Shown here one piece after another: positions 7,100 to 55,949 of a stretch of 62,933 nt of DNA; the first letter of the stretch is position 1, and the number at the start of each line of letters is the position of its first letter. The stretch comes from Rhizaria sp. SCN 62-66 (Eukaryota). Below the pieces are notes generated by a model. The model was not told the origin of the DNA, searched no databases, and saw only the letters and a list, made by a program, of their open reading frames with translations. The stretch is from NCBI GenBank assembly GCA_001724265.1, contig MEDY01000145.1:1-62933 (forward strand). The letters run 5' to 3'. A program made the position numbers and the translations under genes.

Positions 7100-9186
7100 A
7101 TGTCGCGACTGTATCTCACCTACCTGTTCGCGAACGGCCTGCCCCTAGAAGATGATAAAGCTTCAGATATTCCCAAATGTGAGACCCTGCAGCCGGTTGC
7201 TAGCTCTCCCAGCAACGCTGTTTCCAGTGGAACTTCCACGCCCACCGCCCAGCATGCCTCATCGGATGAGTACTGGGCGTCCTCGGCGCTGCTCAACGAG
7301 AGCCAGGACTACACAACCTTGGTGAAGGCTTTCGCAGGCGTCAAATGCGACGCTCGCTACGTGTGTCGTGTGGCTTCACCGGACAAGCTGAAGGACTGCA
7401 TCTACAAAGCGTGCGCGCTTCGCGTTGCAGAGCCCGACTCAGTGTCCGTGCTGCATTTGACGTGCCACGCTGATTCCGCGAGTCTGCACCTTGAGTGCGG
7501 GACAGCGAACATGGACACGACGTACATGAAGAAAGAGGAGCTCGAATACCTTCTGACAAACGAGTACAACAGGGTCGCCTCAGATCCTAACGTTTGCTTC
7601 AACGAAAAGGACCATCGACCCCCGTTTGACCTGGTTTTGCTCATGTGCTGCAACGGCGTCGTGCACGCGAAGCCCTTCACACTGCGCAACATGCCCGTCA
7701 TCACGACGGGCAAATGCGCGATCGATGACACTGTGGGTGTGAACTTCGCACAGGCCCTTTACCAGAAGCTCTTTGTGTGGGACGAGCGCGCGCCGTCGCT
7801 GATAGAAGCCTACGAGCATGCGTGCAAGAGTGTTCGGGGCAAGAAAGGTACAGTCGCAGACTGCGCAAACAGTGCGCCCATGATGCCAAATACCTTTCTG
7901 TTCATCGAGCCGTTGTCCAGCTGCGAATACGGCAAGTGCCATCGCACGGGTCCAAACCTCGGTAACACCATGCCGTCGCAGCGCCTCAAGTCTCACCGAC
8001 CCAGTCAGTCGGTTGCCCTGAACCCGCCGTTCATGCCTGTGGCGAGCAGCGAGAGGCTGCTGGGGCGCGACCGCGAGCTGAGGCTACTGTGCTAGGTCTT
8101 CACAAAGTGCCTCGATTCGCGGCCGCGGCCAACCGTTGTGTGCGGACTGCGCCACGGTGGGAAGTCAACTTTTGTTGATGCTTTCTGCACACGCTTGGGC
8201 ATGCGTCATTTCTTCTGGCCTGTGGTGCAACTCAAGGACTGTCTGCAGAGCTCTGTGGAGGAACTCTTACAGCAGGGCAAAATTATGGACGCTTTCCGTG
8301 AGCACTTTCGCTACGATCTCTGCACTGCGTTGGACGTGGATCCTGATGGCTCGGGACCCTTTGACATCAAAAAGATTCTCACGCACCCCAACTCGCTCAA
8401 GGAGTTCGCCCGATGCCCTGGCTACAACTTTCCACGCTGCGACGTCGACGAGTTTCTCCGGACGGTCTCGATTCGCTGGCTGCTTGTGGTGCCGCGCTGC
8501 GACGACATGCTTGAGGCGATGTGCAAGGCTTCACGGAGCTCTTCACAGGGCATATCAGAGTCAAAGCTGAAGGGGGCGTGGATCCAGTGGGTAAACCAGC
8601 TCGCTGACTTTGGGGTCGCGGTGTGTTTGGGCGCAACCCTCAAGGTCAACGACATGAGTACGTCCGGCTCAGATGAGACGTCGGATGATTCCCCGTACAG
8701 TGGCTTCAACCAAGTCGCCGTGCAGCCGCTGGTGGAGCCTGCGATGCGCCAAATCGTCAGACGGAAGCTCACTCTCAGTGTGCACAATGGGCAAGTCCTT
8801 ACCGCGGTCGAGGAGTACTTTAACAAAGAGCAAATCATGCTTCAACAGCGACTGGCAGGACTTGCCGCCGCGGCCAAGGCATTTGCCAAGCACCTCAACA
8901 AGGGCCTCAGCTCGTACAGTCTGAATAAGATCAAGACGATCGATGAGAAGACCGTCAAACAGGCTGTTGACCGCGCGCTTCAAGTTACGCAAGAGGAGTT
9001 TAAGGAGCGTATTAGCGAGTTCGACAGAGGATAGCGCAGGAGTTCGAGTACAAGCGCCAAGAAAAGCTCAAGCGGATAGCGCAGGAAGTTGCGGTGGTCG
9101 AGGGCAACGCAGCGTCTAAGGAATCGGAGATGGCCGACCCCCCAGAAGGACAAGAAGAAGACAACAAAGACGAGGAGGGGCAGTGA
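7100..9186 (+). CDS. CHAT (caspase/HetF-like) protease domain fused to a STAND-like P-loop NTPase; in-frame TAG at 8093-8095 and an apparent -1 frame change at about 9016-9031
   Basis: VLHLTCHA and LVLLMCCNG resemble the CHAT His and Cys motifs. LLGRDRELRLLC*VF is followed in frame by Walker A GLRHGGKST. The codon-biased C-terminus RIAQEFEYKRQEKL...DEEGQ-TGA lies in the -1 frame. A pseudogene is possible. Confidence 0.65.
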
Positions 9187-10186
9187 GGGAGTGATGGTAT
9201 TGTGTCTGTCATTGTAAGCTGCAGGCACGATCTGAAAGTGAATAGCGCATTATATTATTGCAACTGACAGTGACGCGCGTCCGATATAACAGCATTGCTG
9301 TAATATGGTCAGTGATAGAACTGACGTGAGATAAACTGACATTTAGAAGCAATACAAGCTTACTATGATATTTTCGACGTAATTCGATACTTACATGTAC
9401 ATGTATGTACCAGCCTAACACTACTATGCTGTCCACGAACAAAATAAGCCGTAAATGCTCCACGCACACTCTAATTGAGAACTAATTAAATCAAAACAAA
9501 ATAATTAAGTACAATTATTCAATTTTGTTGTCCATATGAAAGAATTATCACAATATTTTTCATCTCAGCCAACAGACGTTGAAGATATAGAGCCAATTCA
9601 CGATTGGCATCCTCAAAGACTTGGTATTATAATAGATGTGAGACATTGGCTAAGGATCTTCATTCTTCAAACAAAAACAATTGCAGATCGCCAAACTAAT
9701 GTGCAAAACGCACGCAATATCAGAAGTTGGCATCCTAGCTCAATTGTCTTCATTCTTTCCGCCCTGCAGAATCTGACCGCAACGCAGTCGCCTGATGCTG
9801 CCAATCGTGGATTCGTTATAATTATATAATTAGTATGGACATGTTGCATCCTACACAGATTATTGCTTGCTAGGACAAGAGCTAATAAAAGTCCGTCATG
9901 TATTGTCCATAAAAAGGCCTGCAGAGACCATTAACTAAAATACCTCACAATTTGCAACAACGGCTTATCTCGGAAGATCTCTGACCCGAGTTAGGCCTTT
10001 GCACGACGCCATTTTGAAGGTTTGTGTCAGTGATTAAATGATACGTGCATGGTTTGCATGGACAAGATAAGATAATATGCTTCATAACATCGCCACACGA
10101 GAAGTACTACTGCTGGTTTTAAACACCAACGCGTTCTTGATTCGCAAAGCAAGAACATTGTACATACATGCTGATGCTAATAGATT

Positions 10187-11058
10187 TCACTTCTCCTTCT
10201 TGGTCACCGTGTCCATGTCCGACATGGCCGCGCCGGCCGCCGCCGCGGTCGCAACTGCGGGCGCAGCGGCGCTCGACCTGGCGAGGGCGCCGTTGGCCGC
10301 GGTGGCGTCGACGATTGCGGCCTCCGCCGGGTCGATCTTTGCGACCTTGCGGTACTCGCGCTCGCCGGTCACGGGGCACTGCATGCACTCCCAGCTCACT
10401 GGGGCCATCGGTTTCCCTGCGCGGCCCTTGGCGGCCACGACGCCGAGGTCCTCGCGCGCCGTGGAGAGGTAATAGGATCGCGAGTCGCCCAGGGAGATGA
10501 CCACGGCGCGCACGATGTCACCAGGGAGGTACGAGTTGTGAACCTCGATCGCGTCCTGCTCGAACGAACGGATGTCGCGCGCTCTGTAAAACAAAACAAA
10601 GGAGAACAACAGCACATACACATTATACGTGAGGGATACAAGACAATCATGAGAGGTGCGAGCATTTGTGGGGATAAACAATCGATTATCGAAGTAAGTG
10701 AGGTTAAGGAAAGTGAGGTGTGAGAGTGGCAGCAAGCAAAGACGTACTTGATGACGCCGGGGATGGGCTGGCGGAAGGTTGTGCTGTTCTCGACCATGAG
10801 GATGTCGGCGTGGGCCATGCGCGCGTTAATCTTGGAGACGCGGCACAGCACCACCGCGCCGATCGCGGGCACTTCGGCCTCCTGCTTCATCAAGCGCACC
10901 GAGAGGGTCTTCTGGCCCGTGGACGCGCGGGTAACCTGCTTCCAGCCCACAACTGAGGCATAGATCGTGCTGTTGACGGCGTACGTGCCAGGACCGCTGA
11001 TATAGTCGCTGGTCGAGCCGACATGGGTACCCGGCACCACAATTTCCTCGTCAGCCAT
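10187..11058 (-). CDS. EXOSC1: Exosome complex component CSL4/EXOSC1; exons 11058-10748 and 10583-10187; about 235 aa
   Basis: IVVPG...GPGTY...IYASVVG; S1-like PGDIVRAVVISLGDSRSYYLSTAREDLGVV; Zn-ribbon PVSWECMQCPVTGEREYRKVAK. One GTACGT...TTACAG intron. Stop TGA. Confidence 0.95.
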
Positions 11059-11581
11059 GCTACGGCACATGAGTGAGTACGCAACGAAAGTTCCGTCAGT
11101 GAGCAAACGCAAAGAGTAGTGGATATACAAGCCAAATAAAGATTACTTTTTTAAAGTTACACAAACAACACATGTCTCATATGAGAGGCAACGCTCATTT
11201 CAAGATGAGCCTAGATGGCCGATGACTGTGTGCAGCCGCCATCACGGCCATCGAGAGGTGGCAGGCCGAGGCGGATCTCAAAGTGGGCCTCAACTGGCTG
11301 TGTCAGCTCACCATATGGGCGTCTTCCCACCGTGCCACCAGGTTGTCATTGCTTTGTCAAGATTTTACCGCTATTGAATCACTTTTATCTTTAATTGAAA
11401 TATGCATGTTGGCTATTTGGCTTCTCCACTATTCGAAATCAGATCTTGTCCTTCAGTGATTCTCTCCCTCAACCACCCTCTCATGTATCCGCCTCAACCC
11501 TGCCTTTCCTATCTCTTCATCTCGTGTTTCCCTTGCACCACGGCTTTATTCTTGCTTGCTGCTGCCAAGCCAACGCAGACC

Positions 11582-13135
11582 ATGTTCGTGCGCAGGGGTC
11601 TTGCCTCTGTCTGCTCGCATGCGATTCTGTTCGTGGCGCTGCTGCTCGCTCTCTTGGGCGTCGCTTCCGCGCTCACTGAGACGGTCAGAATCACAAACGA
11701 CGCCCGCTCCGCCATCCTCCTCCGCTCCTTTGGCTTCCGCGCCGGCGGCTTCCTTAACGTCACGCTCACCAAGCACACCCTCGCGGTGCCCGCGACGACG
11801 ATCGACGAGCAGAAGAACCGCGAGGTGTACGAGCTGGCGCTCATGGTGGAGCGCTCCGACGCGCCCGCGGCCGTCGACGCGCTCGCCTCGGACGTCTGCC
11901 TGCACCGCACAGCGATGGACCAGTCATCCAAGGTGACTCTGCTGAACCGCAAGATGTGGGACCGCGTGAGCTACACGGCCACGATCACCGAACCCGGCTA
12001 CTACCACATCTACTACTCCAACTGCGAGCCGTCCTCCCTCGCCTCGTTCACCGCCTCTGTCTCCGAGTACAACCTTGCGCCGCGCTCGGGCACTCGCAAC
12101 TACCTCTCGGTTGGGCTGGAGGAGCTCCCGCGCCTCTACGCCGTCTTCTTCGCGATCTTCGCGCTGGAGCTCGTGCTCTGGGTGTGGACACTGGTCCGCA
12201 ACAAGGCCGACGTCAAGATGATGCACGTGCTCATGGGCACCGTGCTGCTCTTCAAGGTCCTCGCCGTGCTCTTTGAGGCCTTTAAGTACGACGTGCTTGC
12301 CTCCACCGGCCACAACAACGGCTGGGCCATCGCGTACTACGTCTTCAACACGATCCGCGCGCTGCTTATGTTCGCTGTCATCGTGCTCGCGGGCACTGGG
12401 TGGTCGTACCTCAAGCCGTTCCTGACGAACCGCGACAAGCAGTTTATCTTGGCCGTGTTGGTGGTGCAGATCATGGTCAACGCGGCGTGGATCGTCATCC
12501 AGGTCACCGAGCCCGCCTACGCCGGCTGGGGCACGTGGCGCGCAGTCTTCTACCTCATGGATCTCGTCTGCGGCATGATCATCCTGCTGCCCATCTACTG
12601 GTCCATCCAACACCTCTACCAGGAGGCCGAGACGGACGACAAGGCAAGTACTAGCCTCACCCGGCTCCGCAACTTCCGCCTCTTCTACCTCACCGTCATC
12701 GCGTACCTCTACGTCTCGCGCCTCGTCACCTTCCTCATCGAGAGCTCGGTGCCCTACTCGCTGCAGTGGCTCTCGCACGTCTTCGCCGAGACCTCAGCCA
12801 TCGGCTTCTTCTTCGTCGTGGGCTACCTCTTCCGCCCACAGCCGCTGAATCCTTACCTCGCGCTTGAGATCGCAGACGAGGAGAACGGCACCGAGCTCAT
12901 GTCCTTCTCCAAACAGTCCATCGCCAGCGCCAAGTCCTCAACCGCGGGCGGCGTCGTCGGCAGCAGCAAGCAGCGCGGGCCCGGCGGCAAGGATCTCGAG
13001 AGCGGACTTCCCGTGCCCGCGAGCGCGGACGACGACTTCGACGACGAGCCGCTCACTGACGTCGACGGCGGCGGCTACGGCCACCCCCAGGGCGCGCTCG
13101 GCGGCGGCGTTCCCGGCGACGACCTCGACATGTAA
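11582..13135 (+). CDS. GPR107/GPR108 (LUSTR, lung seven-TM) family protein, about 517 aa
   Basis: Signal peptide, luminal domain (DARSAILLRSFGF...GG; PGYYHIYYSNC; NYLSVG), seven hydrophobic segments, family motifs GTGWSYLKPFLTNRDK, LLPIYWSIQHL, LRNFRLFYLTVIAYLY and FRP..NPYL. Stop TAA. Confidence 0.92.
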   Translation: MFVRRGLASVCSHAILFVALLLALLGVASALTETVRITNDARSAILLRSFGFRAGGFLNVTLTKHTLAVPATTIDEQKNREVYELALMVERSDAPAAVDALASDVCLHRTAMDQSSKVTLLNRKMWDRVSYTATITEPGYYHIYYSNCEPSSLASFTASVSEYNLAPRSGTRNYLSVGLEELPRLYAVFFAIFALELVLWVWTLVRNKADVKMMHVLMGTVLLFKVLAVLFEAFKYDVLASTGHNNGWAIAYYVFNTIRALLMFAVIVLAGTGWSYLKPFLTNRDKQFILAVLVVQIMVNAAWIVIQVTEPAYAGWGTWRAVFYLMDLVCGMIILLPIYWSIQHLYQEAETDDKASTSLTRLRNFRLFYLTVIAYLYVSRLVTFLIESSVPYSLQWLSHVFAETSAIGFFFVVGYLFRPQPLNPYLALEIADEENGTELMSFSKQSIASAKSSTAGGVVGSSKQRGPGGKDLESGLPVPASADDDFDDEPLTDVDGGGYGHPQGALGGGVPGDDLDM

Positions 13136-13935
13136 GCGGCCGCCGTGCTAACTGCGAGGCTGTGGCCACATCGTTCTTTTTAGGAGCCTGTTCTGTATGT
13201 TTTTAGTTTGTGTATGTTACAAAGATAGTTGATCAGGGTTTTGTTTGCGTTTATGTTCACAGTTGCAGCATTACGGTGTACGTTTTGTTTGTTTGTTAGT
13301 GTGTGTATGTGTGGCTGCTGTTGTTGAATGTTTAAGTCGCATTAGCGTGGTTTATTCAGACCGCGCTTCTGTGACCTGAGCTGACAACCGTTTCGCGCTA
13401 TTGATCGTTGCTGTTGATGTTCGTGTGGCTTTAAAGTACTTTCGGCTCACGCACTGTTGGCGACGATCAGATGTAACGCAATCGCAGCACAGCGACTCTT
13501 ACTGCGGAATGTCAGCCATTCGCGGTCACTTGCTTGCAAACGCAACGCTATGCAGTGTGTGCGCACTGTTGCATGAACACGACGAGCAAGGGAAGCTGTC
13601 GAGATATATGTTTTTTTCTTCTTTTAAAACTACTTAGTCCAAATGAGTCGCACGTGTGATTCTTTGGTGCATCTTTTCATAAAGCCACTATTTTATTTCA
13701 TTGCAAACAGTCAAAGTTCGAATCCCACCACAAACGCTCAGGAGATCCAAACACTCTTGCGGCAGATCAATCATCAAATTAGGATCATGTCCTTAGAACC
13801 ACACCGTTCGTCAAAAGAGCTGCAACTACGTTTTTGTATAGAGTATTGTTTGAATGCGTAGTTATATATTTTGAAATCTCACCTGGACATCTGTTTGACC
13901 TTTGAATATGCTCTTCATACCCTTTCTGAAAAGGC

Positions 13936-16900
13936 ATGAGTGGAAGCAGCCAAGCGCTTGCGAACCTCCAGGCCTGGTTGGCGCAGCAAGAGAAGCGTCC
14001 CGGCTACGCCGACCTCTCTGCTCTGTCTGACATGATCATTTCTACCCCCGACGACGGTGAGGTTGAGTCCTTTGTCATTGGGATCCTCGGCGAAGCGTCT
14101 GGCATTAGAGACTTTCTCTCTGAACTCAAGCGTCGCCGCAAGCTCGTACGTCTACACCAGTTCTCGCTGTCAGTTCAGTTTCACATCAGAATCGCACCAT
14201 GCACCGCCTAACACACACTTAATCTCTACATTATTTTGCTCAGGCCCGCGACGGCTCATCTCAGCCCGCATCCGCTGTGGCAGTTCCTGTCGCAGTCGCC
14301 ACCCCTCGTGCAACGACACAGTCCTCCTCCATGGCCGCGCCGCGCAGCAGCGCCCATCGCCCGCACACGCCGCCGCTCGTTTCGGGCTCCAACGTCCCTG
14401 AATACTCGTACGTGCCCACGACCGGCAAGGCACCTCAGATCGTCGCCGCCGAGGCCGCGGTCGCAGCCGCCGCCGCCGCGACGGCCGAGGCGCTCGCTGA
14501 CGCAAAGACCTCCGCTTTCCCCACGCTCGCGCGCCCGCCCGCTCCCACCGCCGCGGCCGTCGTCGCCTCCGGTGGCGCCGCCGAGGACCTGAGCGCGGCG
14601 CTGCAGACGAGTCGCAACGTCAAGATCGTTGCCAAGAGGGCCAAGAAGCCCTCCGCGGCCGCAGCCGCGGCCGCCGCGGCCGCGTCTGGCGAGCGCCGCG
14701 TGTGCGGCTGCGGCGCGATGGAGCACGACCTGTACGCCAACTGCACAGCATGCGGGCGCGTACTATGTGCCGTCGAGGGCGAGGGCGCGTGTCCGTTCTG
14801 CGAGTCGTTCGTAACGATCGACTACACGCTCACCAACGAGGAGTTCGCTGCAGTCGTGGCCGAGACCGCCAACGACGCCTTTCTCGAGCGCCAGCGCAAG
14901 CACAGCGCCAACCGAACCCTCAGCGCGGCGGCCGCTGACAAGCGCGCTCAGAGCAGCAGCAGTAGCAACAACAACAACAACAACAACAAGAAGGCTGCGC
15001 CTGTGGCTGCGAAGTCTGCGCAGCAGCAGCAGCAGCTTGGCGAGGAGGAGGAGGAGGAGGAGGAGGAGTGCGCTCCTGAGCGCTACGGCGACGAGGAGCC
15101 GGCGTCGCTTAACTGCCGCGCGTTCCCGCAGTCCGGTGGCGTGACCTCGGTTGTGGGTGGCACTGAGGCCGAGCTGGGCGCACCGCTGTACGCGCAGGCC
15201 GCGTCGCGCTCCGTCCCACTGCCAGGCTCGCGCTCCGCAGAGAACAACGCCGCCGCGGCGGCCGCGGCGGGCGCCGACGACGCCGCGGCCGCGGGGCTGG
15301 CGGCGGCGCGCGCGCACCGCGACAAGCTGCTGAACCGCGCGGCGGTGCAGGGCCACCGGCCGCACGTGATTGACGAACAAGCCGACTTCTACGACTTCGA
15401 GGGCAACGCGTGGCTGTCCGAGGCGGAGAAGGAGGTCCGTCGCCGCAAGGCCGAGGAGGCCGACGAGCTTATCCAGCAGCGCCAGCGCCAGCGCACGCTC
15501 GACCTGGACCTCACGGGCGCGCTCTCAGGCGCCGGCGAGGTTACCGTGGGCTTTAACAGGGACGAGCGCGCGCAGATCGGCGCCGGCGGCGCGTTCGGCG
15601 TCACGGGCGACGTGTACAAGGAGGTGCAGAGCGAGCTGAGCCGCAAGGACCGCGCGCGCGAGGCCGCCGAGGCGCGCGACCTGCAGGGCCACTCCAGTGT
15701 CAAGGACGCCGTGACAGCGTTCCCCACGCTCAGCGGTGAGCGGGCCACCACGGCGCCGGCGGCGACGGCGGTGGCCGCCGCGGGCCAGCAGGCGACGACG
15801 GGCAAGTGGGGCGTGTTCGCCGACGCCTCGCGCGAGGCTATCGTCGCGCGCCTGCTGAGCAACGACACGCTGCACGGCCGCGCCAAGGCTGTGTACGACG
15901 CCTTGCAGGCCTCGCTCGCGGAGGCGGCTGAGACCGAGCGCGCGCAGGCCAAGACGCGCGCCACCCTCGCCGCCGCGGCGAACAACAGCAAGAGTGCCGC
16001 CGCGACGGGCGCGCTGGCCACTGGAGTTGCACGCACGCTCGGCGGACACGTCGCGGCGTGCGCGGGCAAGGGCAAAGGACCGGGTGCCGACGGTGCGCGC
16101 GCGGGCGGTCGGCTGCAGCACGACGTGCTGCCCGTCATTGCGGGCGAGGGTGCCGCTGACCAGGCACGTGGTCTCACCAATCTTTGCTACAGTTCAAAGA
16201 CTTGCACACGTTCAATATTTCGTGCAGTGCAATCATTGTTTATTTTACCTCACCTGTTTTTCCCCCCTCCTCTACCTCTTTGTTTGTGCTCATTACAGGA
16301 TGTTCTGCGTGACTAGCCCGAGATGCGCGGCCGCAAGGAGTACGGCACCAACGACGGCAGCTACAGCTCTGACTCTGCAGCCGGCGAGGACACGTTCGAC
16401 GGCTTCATGACCGTGGTTAATAAGTCTCGCGGCAGGGGCCCCAAGTCCACCAACGCGAGTAACGCGACTAGTAGCGCGCCTGGCGGTGCCACTGGCGGCG
16501 GCAGTAGCAGTCGTTTTGGCATGCTCGACTCGCTGCTCGAGGACACCGCAGATGCCGCCGAGCTCATCGGTCCCTCACAGCCGCCCGCGAACGCCTCAAG
16601 CGCCGCCAGCGCCACCGCGACGGCGACATCCTCCGCGCGCGCTGCGGGAACGCGCTTCAACATCCCGGCGTCGGCGCTGCAGCTGGCGCAGGCGCTGGCC
16701 GCAGCCGAGGAGGAAGAGAGCGCCGCGCACGCCGCGGCGTCCGCGGCCGGCGGCAAGAAGAGCCCGTACGTGCCGCTGACGACAGAAAACGCCACTGCGA
16801 GCGCAGGCGCGCCTGCGAACTTCCTGGCGCGCATGATGCTCGACGGCAGGGCGGAGGCGTTCACGGACGCGAGCGACAACGGGACTTGTTTGTCGATGCA

Positions 16901-17447
16901 CCAGCCCTGGGCGAGTCTGCTCGTGCACGGGCTGAAGCGCTTCGAAGGCCGGCCTTGGTTCACGCCCTTTAAGGGCCGGCTGTGGATTGCGGCGACGTCG
17001 CGCCAGCCGGAGCAGAGCGAGATCGACGAGCTGGAGGCCTTTTACCGCCGCGTCTACGGCGCTAACACGAGCAAGATGCCGTTCCCGCGCTCGTACCCAC
17101 ACGCCGCGCTGCTGGGCTGCGTCGACATGCTAGGCTGCTGGGACTCGGCGCAAATGGCTGAGTACGCGCGCGCGCACCCAACGTGGTGCGTCGAGCCCAA
17201 CGAGTCGCATCACGTGTTTGTGTGCGCCAACCCGCGCGTGCTGCCGAAGCCGATCCCGATGAGCGGCAACCACAAGCTGTGGACGCTGCCGGCCAAGATG
17301 CACAAGGGGCTCGCCGACACGCTTAAGCCCGTGGGCGACGCGTGGCTCAAAGAAGCTGTGGGGCTCCTGGACAAAGGTCCTAAGGTCAGGACAGTCAAAG
17401 AAGTCACTGAGCGTGTCACCGTCGAGAAGCCGACAAAGAGCTCGTAA
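13936..17447 (+). CDS. TRIP4: Activating signal cointegrator 1 (ASC-1/TRIP4)-like: C2HC5 zinc finger plus C-terminal ASCH domain; exons 13936-14145, 14244-16163, 16299-17447; in-frame TAG 16314-16316
   Basis: CGCGAMEHDLYANCTACGRVLCAVEGEGACPFC; HRDKLL...VIDEQADFY...WLS; ASCH motif CLSMHQPWASLLVHGLKRFEGRPW...GRLWIAA. Stop TAA. Confidence 0.9.
16164..16298 (+). other. Probable GC-AG intron (135 nt)
   Basis: CAG|GCACGT differs from the local GTACGT donor only at +2. The body is AT-rich with a pyrimidine tract ending TTACAG. The phase-0 join keeps the frame; the nearby GT at 16168 would not. Confidence 0.7.
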
Positions 17448-20600: not shown

Positions 20601-21108
20601 CTGTTTCGCAACATCCGATGCCAAAGGCTGTGTCAGCTGCTCTGAGCGCTTGCACTGCAGACGACACCGCTGCTGCAGTCACTGCACTTAGACAGGCAGT
20701 GGCTTTGCAGACTCTTGGCACGCCCGAAAGCACCGTTGTCTTGCGTGCTGTGGCATGCGATGGCGTCAGCTGCCACGATGGGACCATGCCACAAGCGTTT
20801 ACCTGCGTCACCGCAACAACAAGCACAGCAACGCCGCTGCATGTTGCTGTAAAAAACGTCCATGTCAACGCAGATGCGACTAGCAATAGTGGCCTTCAAC
20901 GCGCACGCCAACTGTGGTCTCAAGCACACAGTGTTGCTGCGGCCGTTGCCGCGACCGCAGGCGCAACAACTACGGACGCAAATCACATTGATGCAGCCAT
21001 TGACCCGCTTGCAGTGCAAGTTAACGCCGCGCTTCATACCAAGGATCTTGCCTGCGCTTACGCAAAGCACAGCGCGCCTTCAAGTACTATTACAGCAAGC
21101 TCAGAGAC

Positions 21109-21142
<34 letters not shown>

Positions 21143-41040: not shown

Positions 41041-41313
41041 TGAATCCTACAACAAAAATAAATTTGATTTAAAAGCGATGTGGGTTAGATCTAACCTAAA
41101 ATATTGTTTATATTCTCACCGGGGTGCGGCTTCAAGCTGCTGATCATGTTATGTTTATGTTCAAGTTGTGGGATCAAACGGTGACTGTGAGCAACCGAGT
41201 CATCCCTAATTGTCAGTTCACGTTGTCATCAATCACATTTGTCGTTACACGATACTTTAAGTTAAATACTGCTCACGACTTTATCACACCCTGTTTAGCC
41301 TTATGTCCTCGCA

Positions 41314-44800: not shown

Positions 44801-47800
44801 CGACAGCGCGGTACACCTGATTCGCACTCTCACGCACGGCGGCCGTGGTCGCGGCACGACCTGCAGCAGCAGCGTCGGCGAGCGCTGCAATGTCGCGACT
44901 CCAGCGCTCTTCGGCAGCAATGGCCGCAGACCGCAGTGCGGCTTCGCGCGCCGCGGCTGCGATCGCAGCAGCAGTGGCGGTGGCATCAGCATCCGCACGA
45001 AGCGCTGCCTCGCGCTCTCGAGCGGCAGCGGTGATCTCGGCAATGGTCGCAGCAGCGTTGCGCTGGGCTTCAGCAGCGGTTTCCTCTGCAGCAGCAACGG
45101 CGGCAAGCAACTGCTCTTCGCGCGTGTTAGCCGCATTCTCAACCTCAATTACTGCGCCCTCCACCGCTGCTGCGAGTGCAGCCGCTGCCTCAGCCTTGGT
45201 GACCTCGGCTGCGGAATCCGCGTTTGCAAGGACACGTCCAACTTCAGCCTGCGCTGCCGAGCGCTCCGCGGCAATGGCGGATTCGGCCGCTTCAATTGCA
45301 GCAACAAGCTCGCGCTCTAGAACCTTGTTCTTGCGTTCAAGCCGTGACACAGCGTGCTCAGCGCGCCGTTTCGTAACCAGACGGCGCCATAGTGCGGCCG
45401 CACGCCTAACGACAGTGCCAATGGCATGCGCGTGTGCGCGTTCGGCAGCAGCATCGGCGACGCGCGCAGCGAATGCCAGAAGTGCTCGCTCACCCTCGCG
45501 CGCTGATGCAGCTGCTGTAGCGTCAACAGCCGCCACGAGTTCTGCCTCGGCCTCGGCTCGTACGGACGCGAGTGTGGCAGCATGCTCGATTGACACTGCG
45601 TCCATCGCAGCGGTTGAGTTCTGCGCACCAGTGTTTACATCCAGCTCGGCAGCCTCTGCACGCGCGACAGCGGCATCACGTTCTGCGGAGACCCTAGCAA
45701 GCTCGCTTTGGATACGTGCCAGATCGCGCTGAGCTTCCTCGGCTGCAGCAACATTCTCCTTTGCAGCAACTTCGGCGTCCGACTGCACTGAAGCAAGTGT
45801 TTCATGTACAATGATGAGTTCCTGCTCCTTCTGCGCAAGCACTTCAGCGACAGCAGCGGTCTCCACACGCGCCGTCTCACGTTCCAGCGTGAGCTCCTCC
45901 TCCATCTCTTCGCCCAGCGCGACAAGCGACGCCGCGTGCGCGTTCGCCTGGCTGGCCGCAGTCTCCGCCGCAGCCGCGCGGTCGTTCAACGCAACTTGCG
46001 CGCGCAGAGAGACGCCGAGGCGCCAGCGCAAACCGGCGGCGCGCGTGATGAGAGTAGAACGCTCGTGAGCGCGCGCCGCACCGAGAACAGCTGCAGCAGT
46101 TGCAATGCGCGTCTCCAAAGCGAGCAGCCGTGCGGACGCCGCGGCATCCGACTCCGCACCAGCAGCTGCAATCGCGTCGTGAGCAGCCACCGCGGCAGCC
46201 TCGGCGCTGGCGGCACGTGCGTCAGCATCTTCACGAGCAGCAGCAAACTCAGCGTGTGTCGCGTCAGCAGCGGTAAGCAGCGCACTGAGCTCGTCAACAC
46301 GAGCACGCAGCACGGAGATTGTGAGTTCACCGGCTGCCCGCGCATCCTCACTTTCACGCGCAGCTGCAGTTGCGCAGTCGAGTGCAGTACGAACATCTGC
46401 GAGCTCAGCACTCAAAGCTGCGGTCGACTCACTTTGCGTTGCTGTCACCGTGTTGGCACGCAGCTCGGCAGCCTCCGCGCGCGCCGCAGCTTCGGCAGCT
46501 AGCTTTTCTGCTGCCGTGACGCGAGCTGCTGCATTCGCCATTTCACGGTTGTGCTCCATTGTACAAAGAGACTGCGCCTGATCGGACTGTGCCGCGGATT
46601 TGGCGACCCGAGCCTCAAAATCAGCGAGCAGGAGTCGCGCCTCCGCAAGCGAAGCGTCACGGTCTGCTGCACAGTCTTGCGCACCAATGAGGGCAGTCTC
46701 AGCTTGACGCCGCGCGAATTCGGCGGTCGCAGCCGCAGTGCGGGCCTCGATGAGCTCTGCTGCCAAGCTTTGCATAGCGACAGCGTGCGCAGCGTTTGCT
46801 GCAGAGATACTAGCCTGCGCAGCAGCAGCGTTAGCATTAGATATCGCGAGCTCGGCACCAGCAGACGCAGCCCCAGAGCGCGCAACAATAAGCTCAGCGT
46901 TCATGGCCGCAAGCTTTGCGTCAGTCTCAACTCTAAGAGCTGCAAGCTTGGTTTCGGCCTCGCCGGCGCGAGTTTCGGCAGCGGCAGCTGCAGTGCGTGC
47001 CTCAGCAATTGCCAGGGCCTGAGTATTCGCGTGTGCGTTCTGTGTTTCAGAGAGAGTTGCAGAGAGAGTTGCATTGTTCTCATCTAACACCGCGATCTGC
47101 TTTTTGAGCGCTGAAACAGCGTGTTCCTTCTCAGTACACTTAATCTCGAGCTCTGAGGCAAGTGTTGCGGCACTTGCAAGCTTCTCCTCGAATTGAGCCT
47201 TTTGAATCCCAAAATCTTTCTCACGAGAAGACAGCTCAGCAGCTCTGAGGTCCACAGTACGGCCACCTACAAGCTCTTGCTCAGTGAGGGCGTCTTGCAA
47301 TTGCCGGACGCGGGCCTGAAGAGCTTCGACCGCCTCAGTATACTTGGTACGTTCGGCATCAATAATGGAAGAATCGGCAAGAGCTCGTGCAACATTGACT
47401 TCATCTGCAGCAGCGGCCGCAGCCATAGCAGCGTCCCTGGCCTCAGTCACAATCTCCAGCTCCGCCCTCAAGCCTGTAATCTGCTGATTGAGCTTCGTGA
47501 CAGCATCCGCAGTTGCCGCAGCATCGACCTCAGCTGCGTGTCTCAGCTGCGCGATTGCGGTCTCGAGTGTCGCATTCTTCTCAGAAGCAGCGGCAAGACG
47601 GGCCTCCCACTCAACCTCACGTTGCACAACACTGGCCTCACACGCACGTAGTTGGCGTTCAGTCTCAGCAAGCTCATCTTGGCAAATGGCCATCGCGAGC
47701 GACGTGGCATCAGCGTGTTGTCCAGCTGCGGTAGCTTCGGCGAGCGCTGCCTCGGCTTCCTCACCAGCAGCTGAGGCTTCGACGCGCGCCGCGTCTAACT

Positions 47801-50800
47801 CAGCACGCATAGTCTCGAGCGCAGCTTCCGCAGCAGCTGCCTCGGCACGCGCAGCCTCTGCCTCATCAAGCGCGTGCTCAGTGTCCAGGTGCGCGCTTTC
47901 AATCTCGGCACGCGCAGCCTCAGCAGCCGCCTGAAAGGTGTGCACTTCTGCACGCGCGGACTCCAGCTCCGCGCGGGAGGCTTGGGCATCAGCACGGGCG
48001 GCCTCGACGTCGGCCAACACTGCAGCAAATGCAGACTCGGCTGGAGCAGCATTCATGCGGTCCGTCAACTCGGCAACCATGTGCTCAAGTTCATGAACGC
48101 GAGCAGCCGAAGACTCAGCCCGCTCAGCCTCAGCATCAGCGCGCTGTTTAGCTGCACTAAGCTGATGCTCCGCAAGCTCAAGTGCAGCCGCAGCAGCTGC
48201 GCGCGCTGCTTCGTATTGCGCAACCTCGGCGCGCGCTGCAACAACTTCCGCTTCACGGGCGGCACCCTCAGTCCGCAAAAGGTCAGCGGATGCAGTCGCT
48301 TCAGCGACCTCCTGGCGCGCGGATGCAAGAGCGGTGTGCGCATCTGCGTGACGGCTCTCCCAGAGCACAAGCTGCGCATTGAACGCCTCAAAGCGGTCTT
48401 CGAGCTCACTCGCGCGGTCCTCAGCCTCTTGCGCGCGCCGCTCAGCAGCAAGCGCACGGGTGGTCACCTCCTGTACAGCAGTCGCTTCACGCCGATGGGC
48501 CTCATCGAGTTTCTCATTCAGCTCGCCCGATTGCAGCAGAGACTGTCGCAGCGCAGCCAAGTCTTCCTCCCATTGGCGCTCGCGCTCAACGGTCTCCTCG
48601 GCGACCGCGGCGACTGCAGCGGCGTTCGCAGAAGCCGCGCTCTCCTCAGCCGCGTCGGCGCGCGCAACCGCTACGGATAGCGCAGACTCAGCGTCACGCA
48701 AGCTGCGTGTTGCAGCTTCGAGTGCTCTCTCAGTGCTTGCAAGCTTCGCTTTAAGGGGAGCCTCGGCATTAGCCGTGGCATTCGCAACAGCGACTCTAGA
48801 GGCAGACCGCTCGCGTTCCACTGCTGCGGCGACTGCGGCAGACTGAGCGGCCTCGGTGCGGCGTTCGGCGGCTGCCACAGCATCTCGAGTCGCCTCGGCC
48901 TCAGCGTCGCCGCGGGTGCGCGCGGCCTCAACCTCACTGCGGGCGCGTCGTTCAGCGGCGCACGCGCGAGCAACCTCCTCTCTGGCGCGAGCAGCGGCCT
49001 CGGCAGCCTCTTCGCGCGCGACCACAGCAGCACGCTCCGCAGCCGCAACCGAGTCCGCGGCGCGCCGGGCCTCGCGGCGCAGAGCAGTGCAGCGCTCCTC
49101 GCTCGCGCGCGACGCGCCGTCAGCGGCAGCCAGTGCAGCTGCAAGACGCGAGACCTCGGCACGCAAGACAGCAACGAGAGCATCATTGTTATTGCTTTCG
49201 TCAACGGCTGCAACCTCACTGGGGCGTCCTGTTGTTGTCACGGTGTTGTTCACGACAGTAGGTGCAGCTGCGGGCTGAAGCGTGGACGGGAGTTGGGCAG
49301 GGGGCATCATCACAGCAGCGTGTGCAGCAGCATGCAGAGCACGCTCCCGCTCGCGCTCTGCCGCGCGCTCCTCACGGGCCGCAACGGCGCACTCGCGCTC
49401 ACGCAAGGCTCGCTCCGCAGACGCGATCTCATCTTTACGGGCCCGTAAAGAGTCCTCCGCGCGCGCGGCCGCTGCAGCACGCTCGCCAGCAGCGTGCTCC
49501 GCATCCCGTGCCGCGGCCTCACGTGCGCCTGCCGCGCTCTCGCGGGTCGCAGCGGTGCTCTCGCGCGCGGCTGCGGCGGCCTCGCGCTCCCCTGCCGCGG
49601 CCGCGCGCGCGGCAACGGCGGCGGCGCGGGCAGCCGTGTCAGCCTCGAGCGCCCGGGCAGCGGCCGCGGCGTCTGTGTCTGCGTCGCGCGCCGCGGTCTC
49701 CCGGGCTGCCACTGCGCGCTCGCGCTCGCTCAGCAGCTGCGCCCGGTCCCGAGCGGCCTGCTCGCGGTCAGTCACCGCCCGGTCCCGGTCGTCGGCGCGC
49801 TGTTCGCGCTCAGCCGCCGCGCGCTCACGCTCGCTCGCCGCGCGCGTGGCGTCCAGCGCGACGCGCTCGCGGTCGACGGCGGCGCGCTCACGGTCGCTCG
49901 CGGCGGAGTCCTTCTCTGCAGACGTGCGCTCACGCTCGCCCAGCGCACGCTCGCGGTCGGCGGCACTGCGTTCACGCTCGCTCGCGGCGCGATCACGGTC
50001 GCCTAGCGCCCGCTCGGCCGTTGCGAGTGCGCGTTCGCGTTCGTTGACGGCACGCTCTCGGTCGCTCAGAGCAGCAGCATCAACCGCGATCGCGGCGGCG
50101 TCAGCGGCGACAGCGGCAGCGGCTGCAGGGACAGACGCGGCAACGCGGCGCGCGTCTGCATATGCTGTCGCCGCGGCGGCTGCGGAGGCGGCGGCAGCTG
50201 CAGCGGCTGTGTTCGCGGCAGTGGCTGCTGCACGCGCGCCCGGTGGGGTCACTGCAACCGCTGGCGCGGGCGCGGGCGCAGGCGCAGGTGCAACACTTTG
50301 TGTTGCGACTCTCGCAGCACCCGCGGCCCTGCGTGCAGGCGTCGGGTCGTACGCGTACTGCTGCAGCAGCGAGAGGTCGCCGGCGTCGGGCGCGATAGTG
50401 TCACGCACGGCTGCGTATGCGCGCGCACGGGAGAAGTCAAGCTCGAGCGCGTCGACGATGGCGGCGGTCGCGGCCGCAGACTCTGCCGAGGCCGCAGCGG
50501 CAGCGGCAACGGGGGTGTACGCAGCAGGTGTCGGTGGCAACGGCTGCGGCTGATGAGAGTGCAGGGGTTCAGCATCACGGTGCAGAGAGCCACCGGTGCT
50601 TAGCCTGCCACGTGGATACGGGTTGGGCTCAAACGAGATGTACAACCCGGAAGGCTCCTTGCTCCCGCCTACTGCGTCAAAGGTGCGGGCCGAGGGAGTG
50701 TGGTTAGAGCCGGATAACAGCCTGTTCGAATACACGGGCTGTGCAGTAGAGCCCCGCGCTGCTGGCACGGGGGCATCCGCAGCAGCAGCGACCAGCGCTG

Positions 50801-51347
50801 AGACAGAGGCGGAGGCCGAGCCGGCGGCGGGAGGCTGCGCAGGGGAAGGAGTGAAGCGCGGCGTTTGCGTCGGCGTGAGCCCGACGGCGCGGAACGACGG
50901 CCGCAGCAGCAGCGATGCGTCCAGCGACACGGCGGGCGACGTAGTAAGCGTGGGTGAGTGCGTGGGCAACGCGGCACTCGAGCTAGACGCTGACGATGTC
51001 GTAGGTGCGGGCGTAGTGGGCGTGATGAAGTGCGAGTAGTGCCCCGTTCCAGCAGCTCCGGGCGCGGACGCCGGGGCGGCGACGGATGGCGTGAACATAG
51101 GCGTAAAACGCGCGGGGGCGCGGGGTGGAGACGGCGGCCCGTAGTAAACGCCGCGGGGTACTGTCGAAGTCACAGAGGCGCTGGTGGTCACGGGAGCCGT
51201 CAGCGGCGTCGGCGGAGTAAAGAGTGAAGGCCGCAAGGCGGCAGACCCTGTGGTGGAAGTTGGCGCAAGGCGAGATGATTTCGCAGGTACCACCGCCGGG
51301 GACACATAAGGATCCCGATACGGGTAAAACTGCGAGTTCAGATCCAT
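41828..51347 (-). CDS. Giant (about 3100 aa) Ala/Glu/Arg-rich coiled-coil protein; exons 51347-43572, 43459-43284, 43178-41828
   Basis: 7.8-kb first exon with long heptad periodicity. Two GTACG...TAG introns join three ORFs in frame (VRE|QEH and LQK|WRM). Stop TAA. Confidence 0.8.
49707..50063 (-). repeat. About 17 tandem 21-nt (7-aa) repeats, consensus [DE]RERA[AVL]x
   Basis: DRERAVN ERERALA TAERALG DRDRAAS ERERSAA DRERALG ... ERERAVA. Confidence 0.85.
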
Positions 51348-51936: not shown

Positions 51937-54900
51937 TTAATCCACTTCCTCCTCTCCGAAGTCGCCGTCGTACGGCAACACCTGCGACCCCGACGCCTGC
52001 TGATCCAGCGCCGACGCCAGCGCCTGCGTCCGCACCGCGGTCCGCAGCGGCGCCATCAGCGCGGGCAGTTCAGCTTGGAACGCCGCGCCGACGCGCGCCG
52101 CCCGCGACCGCTGTTGTTGCGGGCCCGCACGCCCCGTAGTCATCGCCGTTACAGAGTATGCAGTGCTCGGACTGCCGCCGTCGCCCGTGCCAGTCGCGCC
52201 TGCCGTCAGCGCAAGGCGGGCCGCACGGCGCCGCGCCTCCGCCGCCGGGTCCAGCCACATGCGCGGGCCGCACATCTCGCCGCTGCCGCTCTGCACGCCG
52301 CCACGGCCCGCGCCCGTGCGGTCGCTTTGACCGGCCATCAAGGTGTTGTTGCCCGCGTTGTGGCCGCGATGGCCGCTGCTGTTGCTGCTGATGTTGTGGT
52401 GGTAGCCAAACGCGGGGGCAACGAGCTCTCGCGCGGCGGCGCGCGCGCGCAGCATGCCGGCACGCGTGGCCGCCGCGCCCGCAACCACAGCGGGGTCGGA
52501 GTCGGCAGAAGACTGTTGCTCGGTGCCGTTGATGCGGCTGTGGCCAGGCTGAGAGCGGGCGCTTGTGGCGGCCGCGGCGGCGGCGGCGGCGGCCGCAGCG
52601 GCACGCAGCACGGCCGCGTCGTCTTCATGGTCATCCTCGCAGTCCCGGTCAGCGGGGCCTTTGCCACCAGTGTGAGCCGGACTGTGACTCGGACCGTGAC
52701 CGTGACCGTGACCGTGGACGCGAGGGGGCAGGGAGAGCAAAGAGCGCGCGGAGCGGTAGTACGGGTTCTCAGGGCGGTAAAACGGCATCACGCTGCCGTG
52801 GCCTCTCGAGCCGCGACCATGAGCGGAGTGACCGTGAGCGGAGTGAGTGTGAGCAGTAGGACTGTTCGTGGCCAAGAACTCATCGCCAGAGCCAGCATCA
52901 TCGTCCTTGCCGTTGCTCGCAGCAACGAGCCGTGAGCGTTTCACTGACGGACCGCCATGCTGACCTTCAGCGGAGTGATTGAGGGTGGAGTGACCGTGAG
53001 CGGAGTGACCGTGCCCAGCGTAGGCGTCGTCGTCCGATGACCCCGCGTCGCGGCCCTGGAGGATGGCCTCGACGTCGGACGCGAAGAGCGCATCATACCG
53101 GTCCGAGTCGGAGCTGTGCCACGACGACGCAGACTCGTCCGAAGCCGCCGCCTCGCTGTCATCGTGACTGTCGCCCGCGCTGTCGACATCGCCAGCAGCG
53201 GCGCCACTGTGGGTGCGCTTCTGCTGACCGCGACTGCGAGAGCGTTTGTGACCGTGAATGCGGGGTTTGCGACTTGTGTCGTCATCTGTAGTTTCGTAGT
53301 CCGCGGAGCTGTCCTTGCTGTCCTCGCTCTCACTGCTCAAAGCACGGCGGTACACGATCGCACTGTTCGTGGCCGCGACAGACTTCGGCTTCGCAGCCGC
53401 CACCGCAGCCTTCTCCCTCCTCGCCCGAGGCGCCGCGCCAGCGCCGCTAGGGCCGGCGCCAGTGGGAGACTCTGCAGCATCGCCGCCGATGCGGCCGTGC
53501 TGAGCGCGCGCGCGCGGCGGAGGCGGCTCGAGTCCCGCGGCGAGGAACCTGATGCTGCGCGGCACGCGCTGCTTGGCCGCGACGAGGGAGGCGGCAATGC
53601 CGCGGGCGCGCGCGGTGGACAGCGCGCGGCGGGCCGCGGCCGAGGGCGACGGCGGGCCTGCAGCCGTCGCGGCGGCAGCGAGCGCCGAGGACGACGACGG
53701 CGTCGGGTTCGAGTGCAGGATGCGCGACTCGGAGGAGGAGTTCGGGCTTGATCGAGAATGTGACAACTGTGACTGAGTGACATGGGTCTGCGCGTGTGTG
53801 TGCGCGCGTGCATGTGGGTGAGTGGCGTCGTAGTCGCTGTCGAAATCACTCGAGCAGTGCACTTGTGCATACTCGAACGAGTCGTCGCCGCATTCATCAT
53901 CCTCGTTATCTTCGTCTTCATTGTCGTCTTCGTCTTCGTTCTCTGTGTCGCGGTGGACGCCATCGTCGCCTGTCGTGTCGTCCACGTCCAACTGGGCAGG
54001 CTCAGAGGGCTGCAGCATCGTAGGCGGTGGCGGCAACGGCGCAGGGCCCGTCTTCCCGCCGTCGTCGCGCCCCGCCTCACTACTATGGGCGGGGTGCGGT
54101 GAGAGCGACCGCAGCGCGACGCCCGACGAAGCCTGCGGCAGCAGCGACAGATTCGAGGCCGAGGACTCGCACGAGCTCACCGCGGCATCAGACCACAGTG
54201 CGTCAGACTGTGCCGAGTGGGACTGCGCCAAGTCGGCGCCGCGCAGCACGGGGATGCACGCGTGGGCGACTCGGACGGCCTCGGTTGTAGCCTCGGTCGC
54301 CGTCCCCGTCGCCGTCAGCACGACACTGTCATGGAGGGAGCTGTTGGGCGACGCGGGGACGACGACCGCGGAGTCCGTAGTGAAGCCAACCGGGAGCGCT
54401 ACTGGCGGCGGCCGCTGCAGCGCCGGGATGCTCAGACTCACCTCAGACTGGGCATTTGACTGGGAATGAGACTGCGAGTGTAACCGTGACTGCGGCTTAG
54501 AGTGGGGGTTCACGCCAGAGGCACTGCGAGACATGAGTCTACTTGCTGTGCCACTAACTGTCCCGCTTACTGTGCCGCTGGCAGTACCGCTGACAGTACC
54601 GCTGACAGTACCGCTGACTGTCCCGCTGACTGTCCCGCTGTGAACGTTTGAGCCAGGCCCGGACGTGACATCATCAATGTCACACATCACTTGCTGATGC
54701 TGCGATAACTTGATATCTGTGTGTGTTCGTGTCTGTGTGTCGGTGCGAGGAGCTGACGCGAGGGTTAGGGAGGGGTCAGCATGGTCACCGGCATGGGCCT
54801 CCCACCCGCGTTTAAACCGACGCCGCCGACACTCTTCCCACTCCTCCCACCGGCTCCAGCGCCGTCACCGCCACCCTCACCGTCACCGGTGCGAGGGCTG

Positions 54901-55917
54901 TCGCCATCGCCGTCAGCCTCACTGGCGCCCGCAGAGTCGCCCCCCACCTAGTCCTTGCCGCTCCCGGCGCTCCCGCCGCTGTCGGCGGTGCTGCTGGTGC
55001 TGCCGCTGGGGTGGGGCTCCAGCGGCGCTACTACCACCGCAGCCGTCGGGCTCACCGACGACGCGCGCGAAGCGCCGGGCGGACCCCCGCCCGCGGCCCC
55101 AGTAGCTGCAGCAGTGGCGGCGTCTGACATGAGCAGACTGCGCCCTCCCGCGGTGCCGCTCCCAGGCCCCGCCGTCGCGGAGTGACCGTGAGCAGCGGCA
55201 GAGTGACCGTGGGCAGCGGCTGGGTGACCGTGAGCCAGTGCGCCGCCGCCGGGCACCGCGGGGTGACCGTGGGCGTGACCGTGGGCGTGGACGCCGAACG
55301 CGGCGCCGGCGAGGCTGCGGCCCTTGGCTCCCGCGGCAGCCGCGGCGGAGGAGGCGGCGGCGGCGGCGGTCGCGGCGGCGTGCGCGGCCTGGGCGGCGGC
55401 CACGGCGGCCGAGCCGTACGTCGGCGCATCGCCACCCTGCAGATGCTGCTGCTGTTGCTGCTGCTGCGACAATTGCTGTTTGTGATACTGGGCGGCGCCG
55501 GCGACAGTGACTGTGGGTGCGGCCGCAGCGGACAGCAGGGGGGACCCGACCCGCGAGACGCCGCTGCTGTTGACCGCAGAAAAGCCCGGAGTGGGCGCCG
55601 GGCGCATGTTCGGGCTCGCTGCTGCCGACGACAGCCGCGACGCGCCGGCACCAGTCGCAGACCCGGTGCTGAGCCGCGGGGCCGCGCCGCCCCCCGCGGC
55701 GTGGAGCAGCGGGCCCGCGCGCGGCGACATGGCGACGGTGGCGGCCGCGCGCTGCAGCGAGGCGAAGACGGGCGAGTCGCAGATGGCGAGCGCAACCGCC
55801 AGCGCGGGATCGACGTGCGCCAGCCGCGCGTCGAGGCTGCCGCTGCCGGTGGCGGGGCCGCTGGTCGTCGCGGCGGCCACGGCGGCGGCAGACGGCAGCG
55901 ACGGGTCCCCGGCCGTC

Positions 55918-55949
<32 letters not shown>

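Follow-up and report, generated by a model that had tools for sequence, protein, structure and literature searches.

The window, that is, the whole stretch of 62,933 nucleotides analysed here, matches contigs from bioreactor and wastewater metagenomes and belongs to a GC-rich, uncultured eukaryote. For a conserved membrane protein encoded in it, the closest relative shows 58% identity. Neither the protein atlas nor the GOST and ASCH homologue lists pointed clearly to a lineage; the best named GOST matches are oomycetes (38–41%). A metagenome scan for related loci returned one identical contig of 1973 bases as its sole match. Canonical spliceosomal cis-introns are present, for example in the EXOSC1, zf-rbx1 and Aha1_N genes, so the original prediction had been wrong to treat the organism as intronless. 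Long open reading frames (ORFs) and strand runs had prompted a reading of the locus as kinetoplastid-like polycistrons with trans-splicing. This was rejected because cis-introns split the three genes just named across frames, and because CSL4 lies on the opposite strand inside a plus-strand run. In a RING and B-box gene, no in-frame placement was found for the second intron. Contigs from the RNA libraries are too sparse to show transcripts across the TAGs, and those listed over intron positions are unspliced. The features discussed below are collected in Table 1.

Table 1. Genes, introns and in-frame TAG codons discussed in the text (a slash marks the exon–intron boundary).
Feature	Position	Strand	Details
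G3, NLR-like gene	7100–9217	+	AAA_16 P-loop NTPase domain; frame ends TAA 9215–9217
In-frame TAG in AAA_16 domain of G3	8093–8095	+	before Walker A motif GLRHGGKST
Two more TAGs in G3 frame	9032–9034, 9077–9079	+	both in direct repeat
EXOSC1/CSL4 gene	10187–11058	-	intron 10747–10584; TGA end 10189–10187
TRIP4/ASC-1 homologue	13930–17447	+	Pfam zf-C2HC5, TRIP4_3rd, ASCH; TAA end 17445–17447
TRIP4 exons and introns	exon 1 to 14145; intron 1 14146–14243; exon 2 14244–16163	+	
Putative GC-AG intron, 135 nt	16164–16298	+	CAG/GCACGT ... polypyrimidine tract ... CAG
In-frame TAG in TRIP4 gene	16314–16316	+	five codons past CAG acceptor
G7/G8, one orphan gene	18263–23230	+	1614 codons after intron removal; TAA end 23228–23230
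G7/G8 intron, 123 nt	20457–20579	+	G/GTAAGT ... CAG; contains TAA 20537
In-frame TAG, codon 1044 of G7/G8	21515–21517	+	same frame best-scoring either side
G9, low-complexity protein, 3746 codons	24580–35820	+	TAG 35698–35700
G14, low-complexity protein	54765–58214	-	TAG 54950–54948
Aha1_N-domain gene	59240–60128	+	intron 59573–59834; TGA end 60126–60128
Actin, C-terminal 63 codons	62741–62933	-	...HRKCF, then TAA

TAA and TGA are retained as terminators in this window. The conserved actin C-terminus directly precedes TAA, as the original prediction had stated, and the CSL4 and Aha1_N genes end at TGA. In CSL4, GC3 stays at 0.85–0.95 up to the TGA and falls afterwards, and TGA is therefore a working stop. 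As also predicted, no long ORF requires an internal TAA or TGA. Eighteen gene ends could be assigned in the window, comprising 15 TAA, 3 TGA and 0 TAG; the earlier count of 12 ends (8 TAA, 4 TGA) thus stood in its absence of TAG and not in its numbers. No gene in the window has TAG as an evident terminator.

In-frame TAG codons were found at the five predicted positions and in the predicted peptide contexts: 8093, 16314, 21515 and 35698 on the plus strand and 54950 on the minus strand. A comparison of the 40 codons following these TAGs with those following 17 TAA or TGA stops showed higher GC3 (p=0.0005, Mann–Whitney) and a higher codon-usage score (p=0.0005, Mann–Whitney) after the TAGs, and the open-frame lengths differed as well (p=0.002). 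A rival reading, which we consider unlikely, keeps the standard code and takes the TAGs as a mixture of ordinary stops, one spliced-out TAG and nonsense alleles. Under the standard code the tally of gene ends becomes about 12 TAA, 3 TGA and 5 TAG, which is unremarkable. TAG is also the most accessible nonsense codon, accounting for 66% of the stop-creating single-base changes in this codon usage, so that internal stops that are all TAG are expected about one time in five for four sites. Against this, the standard code requires five separate coincidences within one 63-kb window.

Two of the TAGs lie near C-termini. In G9, TAG 35698 is followed by 39 in-frame codons and then by TAA 35818–35820; in G14, TAG 54950 is followed by 60 in-frame codons rich in Gly, Asp, Ser and Ala and then by TAA 54767–54765. 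Both extensions keep coding composition and frame-specific codon usage, and the steep drop in GC occurs at the later TAA and not at the TAG. In the G9 extension, GC by codon position is 0.67/0.41/0.62, compared with 0.30/0.28/0.35 directly after its TAA; the G14 extension has a GC3 of 0.70 and a score of 0.31, compared with a maximum score of -0.20 among the 17 controls. The standard code would make 35698 and 54950, along with a further TAG at 9032, ordinary stops with downstream frames open by chance, and in GC-rich DNA it is not unusual for a frame to stay open for 39 or 60 codons. Such chance frames would, however, have to exceed all 17 TAA and TGA controls in both GC3 (p=0.014) and score (p=0.006), with the break in composition falling at TAA. 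The C-terminal residues of the two extensions, ...FGRG and ...LTPP, look unlike known targeting signals. At TAG 54950, a GCAAGG 8 nt before the TAG would allow an in-phase junction with the next gene; an intron here was rejected because the 269 nt between are 72% GC and have no polypyrimidine tract, unlike every confirmed intron.

The TAG at 21515 lies deep within an orphan gene. The TAA that had appeared to divide this gene in two lies inside an intron. No 5' splice-site-like motif was found from 372 nt upstream to 374 nt downstream of this TAG, and more generally no GTA[AC]G or GCA[AC]G motif is usably placed near 8093, 21515 or 35698. A separate gene starting after the TAG is unlikely because the next ATG, just 24 codons downstream, is too close. 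In the database the gene is entered as two proteins, one of 299 and one of 547 residues, and these two fragments were its only relatives among 1.84 billion protein representatives; no Pfam family was detected in it. An RNA contig over 20405–20586 is unspliced.

The TAG at 16314 lies in the TRIP4/ASC-1 homologue. The putative intron 2 begins at 16164 (GCACGT), and GC3 drops to 0.47–0.53 and the coding score to -0.73 within 16164–16298. The TAG lies 16 nt downstream of the polypyrimidine tract and CAG (16296–16298), and the AG of the TAG itself (16316) is an alternative acceptor, giving an intron of 153 nt from which the TAG is removed. Both intron variants (135 and 153 nt) preserve the TRIP4 frame. 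The TAG may thus be exonic or intronic and is uninformative for the code, and its position beside an acceptor favours the standard-code reading, in which it leaves with the intron. ASCH homologues reach E values down to 6e-46 with query coverage of 34–66%, about the extent of the ASCH domain; this domain lies far downstream of the TAG, and none of the homologues spans it. The database lists the ASCH half of the gene as a separate 374-residue protein. One RNA contig has its start at 16316 and a second its end at 16186; neither position matches an in-frame splice junction, and both are probably coverage limits.

The TAG at 8093 lies in G3, whose N-terminus carries a weak CHAT-like match (E=0.036). 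It is located 13 residues past the start of the AAA_16 domain match, and GC3 is continuous across it (0.65–0.82). The domain was found only with both sides of the TAG joined (25.2 and 27.8 bits; E=2.6e-5 and 4.2e-6, a single weak domain match scoring below the Pfam cut-off of 32.6 bits), and in neither half alone at E≤1. Searches with G3 gave 0 homologues and no match among solved structures. TAG 8093 is retained in a haplotype of ~6% divergence seen in runs X3 and X4 from two other studies, which differs from the window at 8054–8141 and, among the differences listed, not at 8093–8095.

In the standard-code reading, both 8093 and 21515 are nonsense alleles, one in a decaying NLR-like gene and the other in an orphan gene. 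G3 is indeed a hypervariable gene and is possibly decaying: among the differences listed between runs, 25 changed codons are non-synonymous and 8 synonymous, a ratio near 1, with differences spread 12/12/12 over the three codon positions, and a frameshifting 10-base difference lies near its end. On the other hand, the TAG predates the split of the two haplotypes, and the G3 frame has stayed intact between them (~5–6% divergent) over 1.9 kb (7100–9025), with just one +1 and one -1 indel, four bases apart, among the differences listed, whereas the 1.3 kb of adjoining non-coding DNA after 9025 has three indels among those differences. Two premature stops in ~19 genes would also be unusual for a free-living organism.

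The original prediction of a single TAG per gene did not hold for G3, where TAGs 9032 and 9077 precede the TAA at 9215. Composition places the coding sequence at 9032–9079 in the -1-shifted frame, whose end is TGA 9184–9186; GC by codon position changes there from 0.63/0.33/0.68 to 0.33/0.63/0.70. Run X4 carries 10 additional bases after 9025 that restore this -1-shifted coding frame, while the allele in the window is without them and its frame hits TAG 9032 directly. TAG 9032 could be an ordinary stop. The end of G3 is thus ambiguous, with TAG 9032 among the candidates, and was left out of the stop tally.

It is very improbable that the TAGs arose as errors of sequencing or assembly or from chimeric joins in the contig. 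The window is a metagenome assembly and was compared with assembly contigs, not raw reads, which leaves some room for errors of this kind. The divergent haplotype, however, covers 8093 without a change there, and the bin containing 21515 is covered by contigs of three runs. An independent X3 contig from another study has 0 differences over 15662–16768, and TAG 16314 is therefore not an assembly error; for 21515 and 16314, the comparison with other runs covers the differences listed. Three of the TAGs are uncovered by the X9 RNA pieces listed.

A further alternative is that TAG is a leaky stop: in a minority of genes, near-cognate tRNAs would read through it in a gene-specific or context-dependent manner and yield extended or full-length proteins, amounting to dual use as stop and sense codon and no full reassignment. 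This fits the great rarity of in-frame TAG (4 or 5 in ~17,000 codons). It also fits the C-terminal extensions seen in two cases, since programmed readthrough classically takes this form, with a short in-frame extension running to the next stop. Unlike in programmed readthrough, the two or three other TAGs lie deep within genes, and the bases after the five TAGs (GTC, CCC, CCA, GCA and GTG) share no common motif, as had been predicted. Moreover, nowhere in the window is a terminal TAG directly followed by UTR-like sequence, and a TAG ahead of an essential motif, as with Walker A in G3, would require efficient readthrough. We therefore regard a leaky stop as improbable.

TAG in this window sits within coding sequence, with coding signatures running on to TAA. 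We think it somewhat probable that UAG specifies an amino acid, or that readthrough is efficient enough for selection to treat the codon as sense. The core of the original prediction, that TAA and TGA act as terminators in this window but TAG does not, is upheld for four TAGs (8093, 21515, 35698 and 54950). Of its five cases, 16314 drops out, being explained equally well by splicing, and 8093 counts with the proviso that it lies in a hypervariable, possibly decaying gene. No homologue was found that aligns across any of the TAGs.

If UAG is sense, termination would fall mainly to UAA and to a lesser degree to UGA, a tRNA reading UAG would be present, and eRF1 would recognise UAG poorly. ARAGORN found no CUA-anticodon tRNA in the window, only one doubtful tRNA call inside a coding region without a determinable anticodon, and Rfam gave 0 matches; the eRF1 gene is absent from the 63-kb window. 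The predicted assignment of UAG to glutamine received no support in this analysis. Glutamine would be the most economical guess only, being one transition from the common codon CAG. That low TAG usage fits the GC bias, as had been proposed, is a weak argument, because TAG has G at its third position and such codons are favoured (CAG 420 compared with CAA 105). The rarity of UAG codons suggests either a young reassignment or a low-abundance decoding tRNA.

The code in which TAG means Gln is listed as NCBI table 15. UAA and UAG nearly always change meaning together, and UAG-only cases are few (PMC11687900). According to that source, UAG alone was reassigned to Gln in the fornicate Iotanema spirale, in Protocruzia tuzeti and in some phyllopharyngean ciliates. 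As in these organisms, UAG would be sense here and UAA still a stop. As for differences, the wastewater eukaryote studied here is GC-rich, carries introns, is not ciliate-like and uses UAG extremely rarely. The same account describes UAG as Leu in an uncultured rhizarian and some phyllopharyngean ciliates, and as Ser in the green alga Scotinosphaera. These cases have in common with ours that UAG alone is reassigned and UAA kept as a stop, but they concern different lineages, and nothing here favours Leu or Ser. In Blastocrithidia nonstop and in ciliates with ambiguous codes (Condylostoma, karyorelicts), UAA is described as the main or sole terminator and the other stops as sense (PMC12153298, PMC12152300, PMC4967479). 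As described there, all three stops occur in frame in those organisms, whereas the long ORFs here are without in-frame TAA or TGA, and TGA terminates 3 genes.

A bolder reading, to which we give about even odds, is that the window comes from a previously unsampled eukaryotic lineage, in line with the orphan gene G7/G8 and the 58% identity of the membrane protein's closest relative. In its nuclear genome, GC-rich and terminating at TAA, UAG would have lost its role as a stop independently of other lineages, and the change would still be at an early stage. At such a stage, UAG codons would still be very rare, several of them at former or near C-termini. In practical terms, standard-code gene callers have already split the G7/G8 and TRIP4 genes. 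If UAG is indeed sense, the organism would be a further independent UAG-only case, in a GC-rich, non-ciliate-like eukaryote. It could then help to test whether code changes start with codon capture or with an intermediate stage of ambiguous decoding, and its very low UAG usage would make it especially valuable for this. It would offer a natural snapshot of a UAG-only reassignment at its beginning.

The genes of the window identify it as eukaryotic DNA: they encode an actin C-terminus, a TRIP4/ASC-1 homologue, a GOST 7-TM protein, B-box and Sel1 proteins, EXOSC1/CSL4, an RBX1-like RING-H2 protein and an Aha1_N protein. GC3 is 0.7–0.9 in coding regions, and intergenic DNA is far lower in GC. Identity between the GOST protein and its closest relative is 58%, and the named matches are oomycetes at 38–41%. 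Bioreactor and wastewater metagenome runs of several studies contain DNA near-identical to the window; a metagenome scan for related loci returned solely an identical 1973-base piece. In the database, the proteins of the window are assigned to a contig of 63,025 bases, nearly all of which the window thus covers. Three very long proteins are of low complexity, rich in Ala, Ser, Gln, Asp and Glu, and a Pfam scan of the two longest found no family. A RING-finger exon pair suggests a gene of TRIM-like make-up, with RING and B-box, in which no in-frame placement of a second intron with the B-box ORF was found.

Positions of genes, introns and other features in the window
Feature	Position	Strand	Remarks
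RING-finger exon pair	2380-2505, 2689-2829		Upstream of B-box ORF, in 2380-2946
NLR-like gene (G3)	7100-9031		Contains TAG 8093
Tail of G3	9025-9217		Direct repeat encoding KRIAQE twice
TRIP4/ASC-1 homologue	13930-17447	+	Contains TAG 16314
First TRIP4 intron	14146-14243		
ARAGORN "tRNA-???"	14606-14700	-	95 bases; almost certainly spurious
Candidate GC-AG intron in TRIP4	16164-16298		Likelier acceptor CAG at 16296-16298
Intron of the orphan gene (G7/G8)	20457-20579		123 nt, G|GTAAGT...CAG
Low-complexity gene (G9)	24580-35820	+	3746 residues; contains TAG 35698
Low-complexity gene	36241-40860		About 1540 residues
Small ORF	41299-41637	+	Signal-peptide-like start (MIGRFPHFLFLALVLLSLLLLSTAQ); ends in TAA; between two minus-strand genes
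Low-complexity gene	43563-51347		2595 residues
Short intergenic interval	54687-54767	-	78 nt from one gene's TAA to the next same-strand gene's first ATG
Low-complexity gene (G14)	54765-58214	-	Contains TAG 54950

Introns are present in these genes. Two domain matches are each split over two ORFs in different frames: EXOSC1, with profile positions 1-30 in one and 81-112 in the other, and zf-rbx1, with 2-31 and 26-55. The intervening sequences begin with a donor of the form GTACG[TC] or GTAAGT, contain a T-rich tract and have a CAG acceptor; their excision yields continuous proteins. RNA-library contigs are sparse and unspliced wherever they cover introns. The existence of introns changes the reading of two sites. 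In the orphan gene, the TAA that had appeared to terminate it lies within an intron, without which two ORFs join in frame into a single 1614-codon gene; this intron is still present in a polyA-RNA-library contig that covers 20405-20586. In the TRIP4 homologue, a second intron-like stretch begins with CAG|GCACGT, which is the organism's GTACGT consensus except for C at +2. Here GC3 and the coding score sink as low as about 0.5 and -0.73, respectively, and a long polypyrimidine tract and CAG close the stretch, five codons ahead of TAG 16314. With 16298 as acceptor the intron would measure 135 nt; with 16316, where the TAG supplies the AG, it would measure 153 nt. The first seems likelier, as CAG is the acceptor in each of the six introns for which one was placed. 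Because both acceptors keep the frame, TAG 16314, which the original prediction had taken as a sense codon, is exonic or intronic by choice of acceptor and is countable neither way.

TAG 21515 is codon 1044 of the orphan gene, which has zero relatives among 1.84 billion representatives. The best-scoring frame is identical on either side of it, and no donor-like motif was found from 372 nt upstream to 374 nt downstream. The next ATG is only 24 codons downstream, leaving no room for a separate gene. TAGs 35698 and 54950 are followed by 39 and 60 in-frame codons, respectively, each run ending at a TAA. In the first 40 codons after each, GC3 is 0.60 and 0.65 and the codon-usage score 0.02 and 0.31, exceeding the maxima after 17 control TAA or TGA stops (0.575 and -0.20; p = 0.014 and 0.006). 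In the 35698 extension the three codon positions have a GC of 0.67/0.41/0.62, against 0.30/0.28/0.35 directly past the TAA, a drop that places the composition boundary at the TAA. At 54950, a Gly/Ser/Asp/Ala-rich low-complexity peptide carries on across the TAG. In the gene following the 78-nt interval, the coding score climbs only about 150 nt beyond the first ATG, making a later ATG a possible true start.

Taken together, the five TAGs exceed the 17 controls in open-frame length, GC3 and score (p = 0.002, 0.0005 and 0.0005). Of 18 assignable gene ends, 15 are TAA and three TGA (CSL4, the Aha1_N gene and a PHD-like ORF); the earlier count of eight TAA and four TGA was not reproduced, while the statement that no gene ends in TAG held. 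The TAA preference is unusually strong for a GC-rich genome, and the base after TAA is G in most gene ends. Low TAG usage had been attributed to GC bias, an explanation contradicted by the preference for G-ending codons (CAG 420 vs CAA 105); it points instead to recent or inefficient reassignment. A window-wide search for tRNA and other RNA genes found no CUA-anticodon tRNA and no other RNA gene; the ARAGORN candidate lies in an Ala-rich TRIP4 coding region, was assigned no anticodon and has no Rfam match. None of the homologues found in our searches crosses any TAG.

TAG 8093 lies in G3, whose NLR-like layout comprises a weak CHAT-like N-terminal match and an AAA_16 P-loop domain. The latter scores 25.2 and 27.8 bits (E = 2.6e-5 and 4.2e-6), both below the Pfam cut-off of 32.6 bits, solely when read across the TAG; neither the 331 residues before it nor the 312 after it alone match AAA_16 at E ≤ 1. 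A GR-x-EL signature precedes the TAG, a Walker A motif (GLRHGGKST) follows it, and GC3 is unbroken across it. A haplotype present in contigs from metagenome runs of two other studies, X3 and X4, differs from the window 15 times within 215 bases (7926-8141), with none of the listed differences at 8093-8095. Sequencing or assembly error is a very improbable source of the TAGs. Over 7100-9025 the sole listed indels are one of +1 and one of -1, separated by four bases, and the following 1.3 kb holds three. These frame-neutral indels indicate that the G3 frame was kept, though the TAG predates the haplotype split.

The end of G3 is less simple than the one TAG per gene originally described, as its frame holds two more (9032 and 9077) before TAA 9215. 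Past about 9030, GC by codon position marks the -1-shifted frame as coding-like; it encodes KRIAQEF...KRIAQEV before its stop, TGA 9184. In X4, 10 extra bases after 9025 bring the gene into this frame, and a 1-base insertion at 9157 shifts it again. The 10-base difference implies a frameshift close to the end of the gene in the window's allele, which an X3 contig confirms, matching it without a difference over 8839-9790. TAG 9032, two codons past the frameshift, could be an ordinary stop. X3 harbours two coexisting haplotypes of 7000-10300. Window and X4 are about 5% divergent over 7.0-10.3 kb (84 differences and 12 gap positions in 1713 bases), about five times more than elsewhere (0.3-1.1%). 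The 36 differences in G3 are spread 12/12/12 over codon positions, with 25 non-synonymous and 8 synonymous changed codons. This excess could reflect balancing or diversifying selection; the pattern is compatible with diversifying selection, the gene being NLR-like, and with relaxed constraint as well.

These irregularities of G3 favour a standard code with TAGs of mixed causes, under which the stop tally would look unremarkable. Moreover, 66% of stop-creating single-base changes yield TAG under this codon usage, so that the internal stops all being TAG is not significant. However, under a standard code two of about 19 genes would have to carry premature stops, and one of these stops would be older than a 6% haplotype split after which the frame was kept. 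Such a code also needs two ordinary TAG stops that are both followed by coding-like sequence up to a TAA with a composition break there, and the total absence of clear TAG terminators in the window. We consider it a distinctly weaker contender and a leaky TAG with dual stop and sense use an improbable one, and regard TAG as probably, though by no means securely, a sense codon in the window, through reassignment or near-complete readthrough.

PMC11687900 describes UAG-only reassignment for several phyllopharyngean ciliates, an uncultured rhizarian (Leu), Iotanema spirale and Protocruzia tuzeti (both Gln) and Scotinosphaera (Ser). A selective literature search returned no such code for a wastewater or GC-rich non-ciliate eukaryote. 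If real, the code of this organism would be a further case of the already described UAG-only reassignment.
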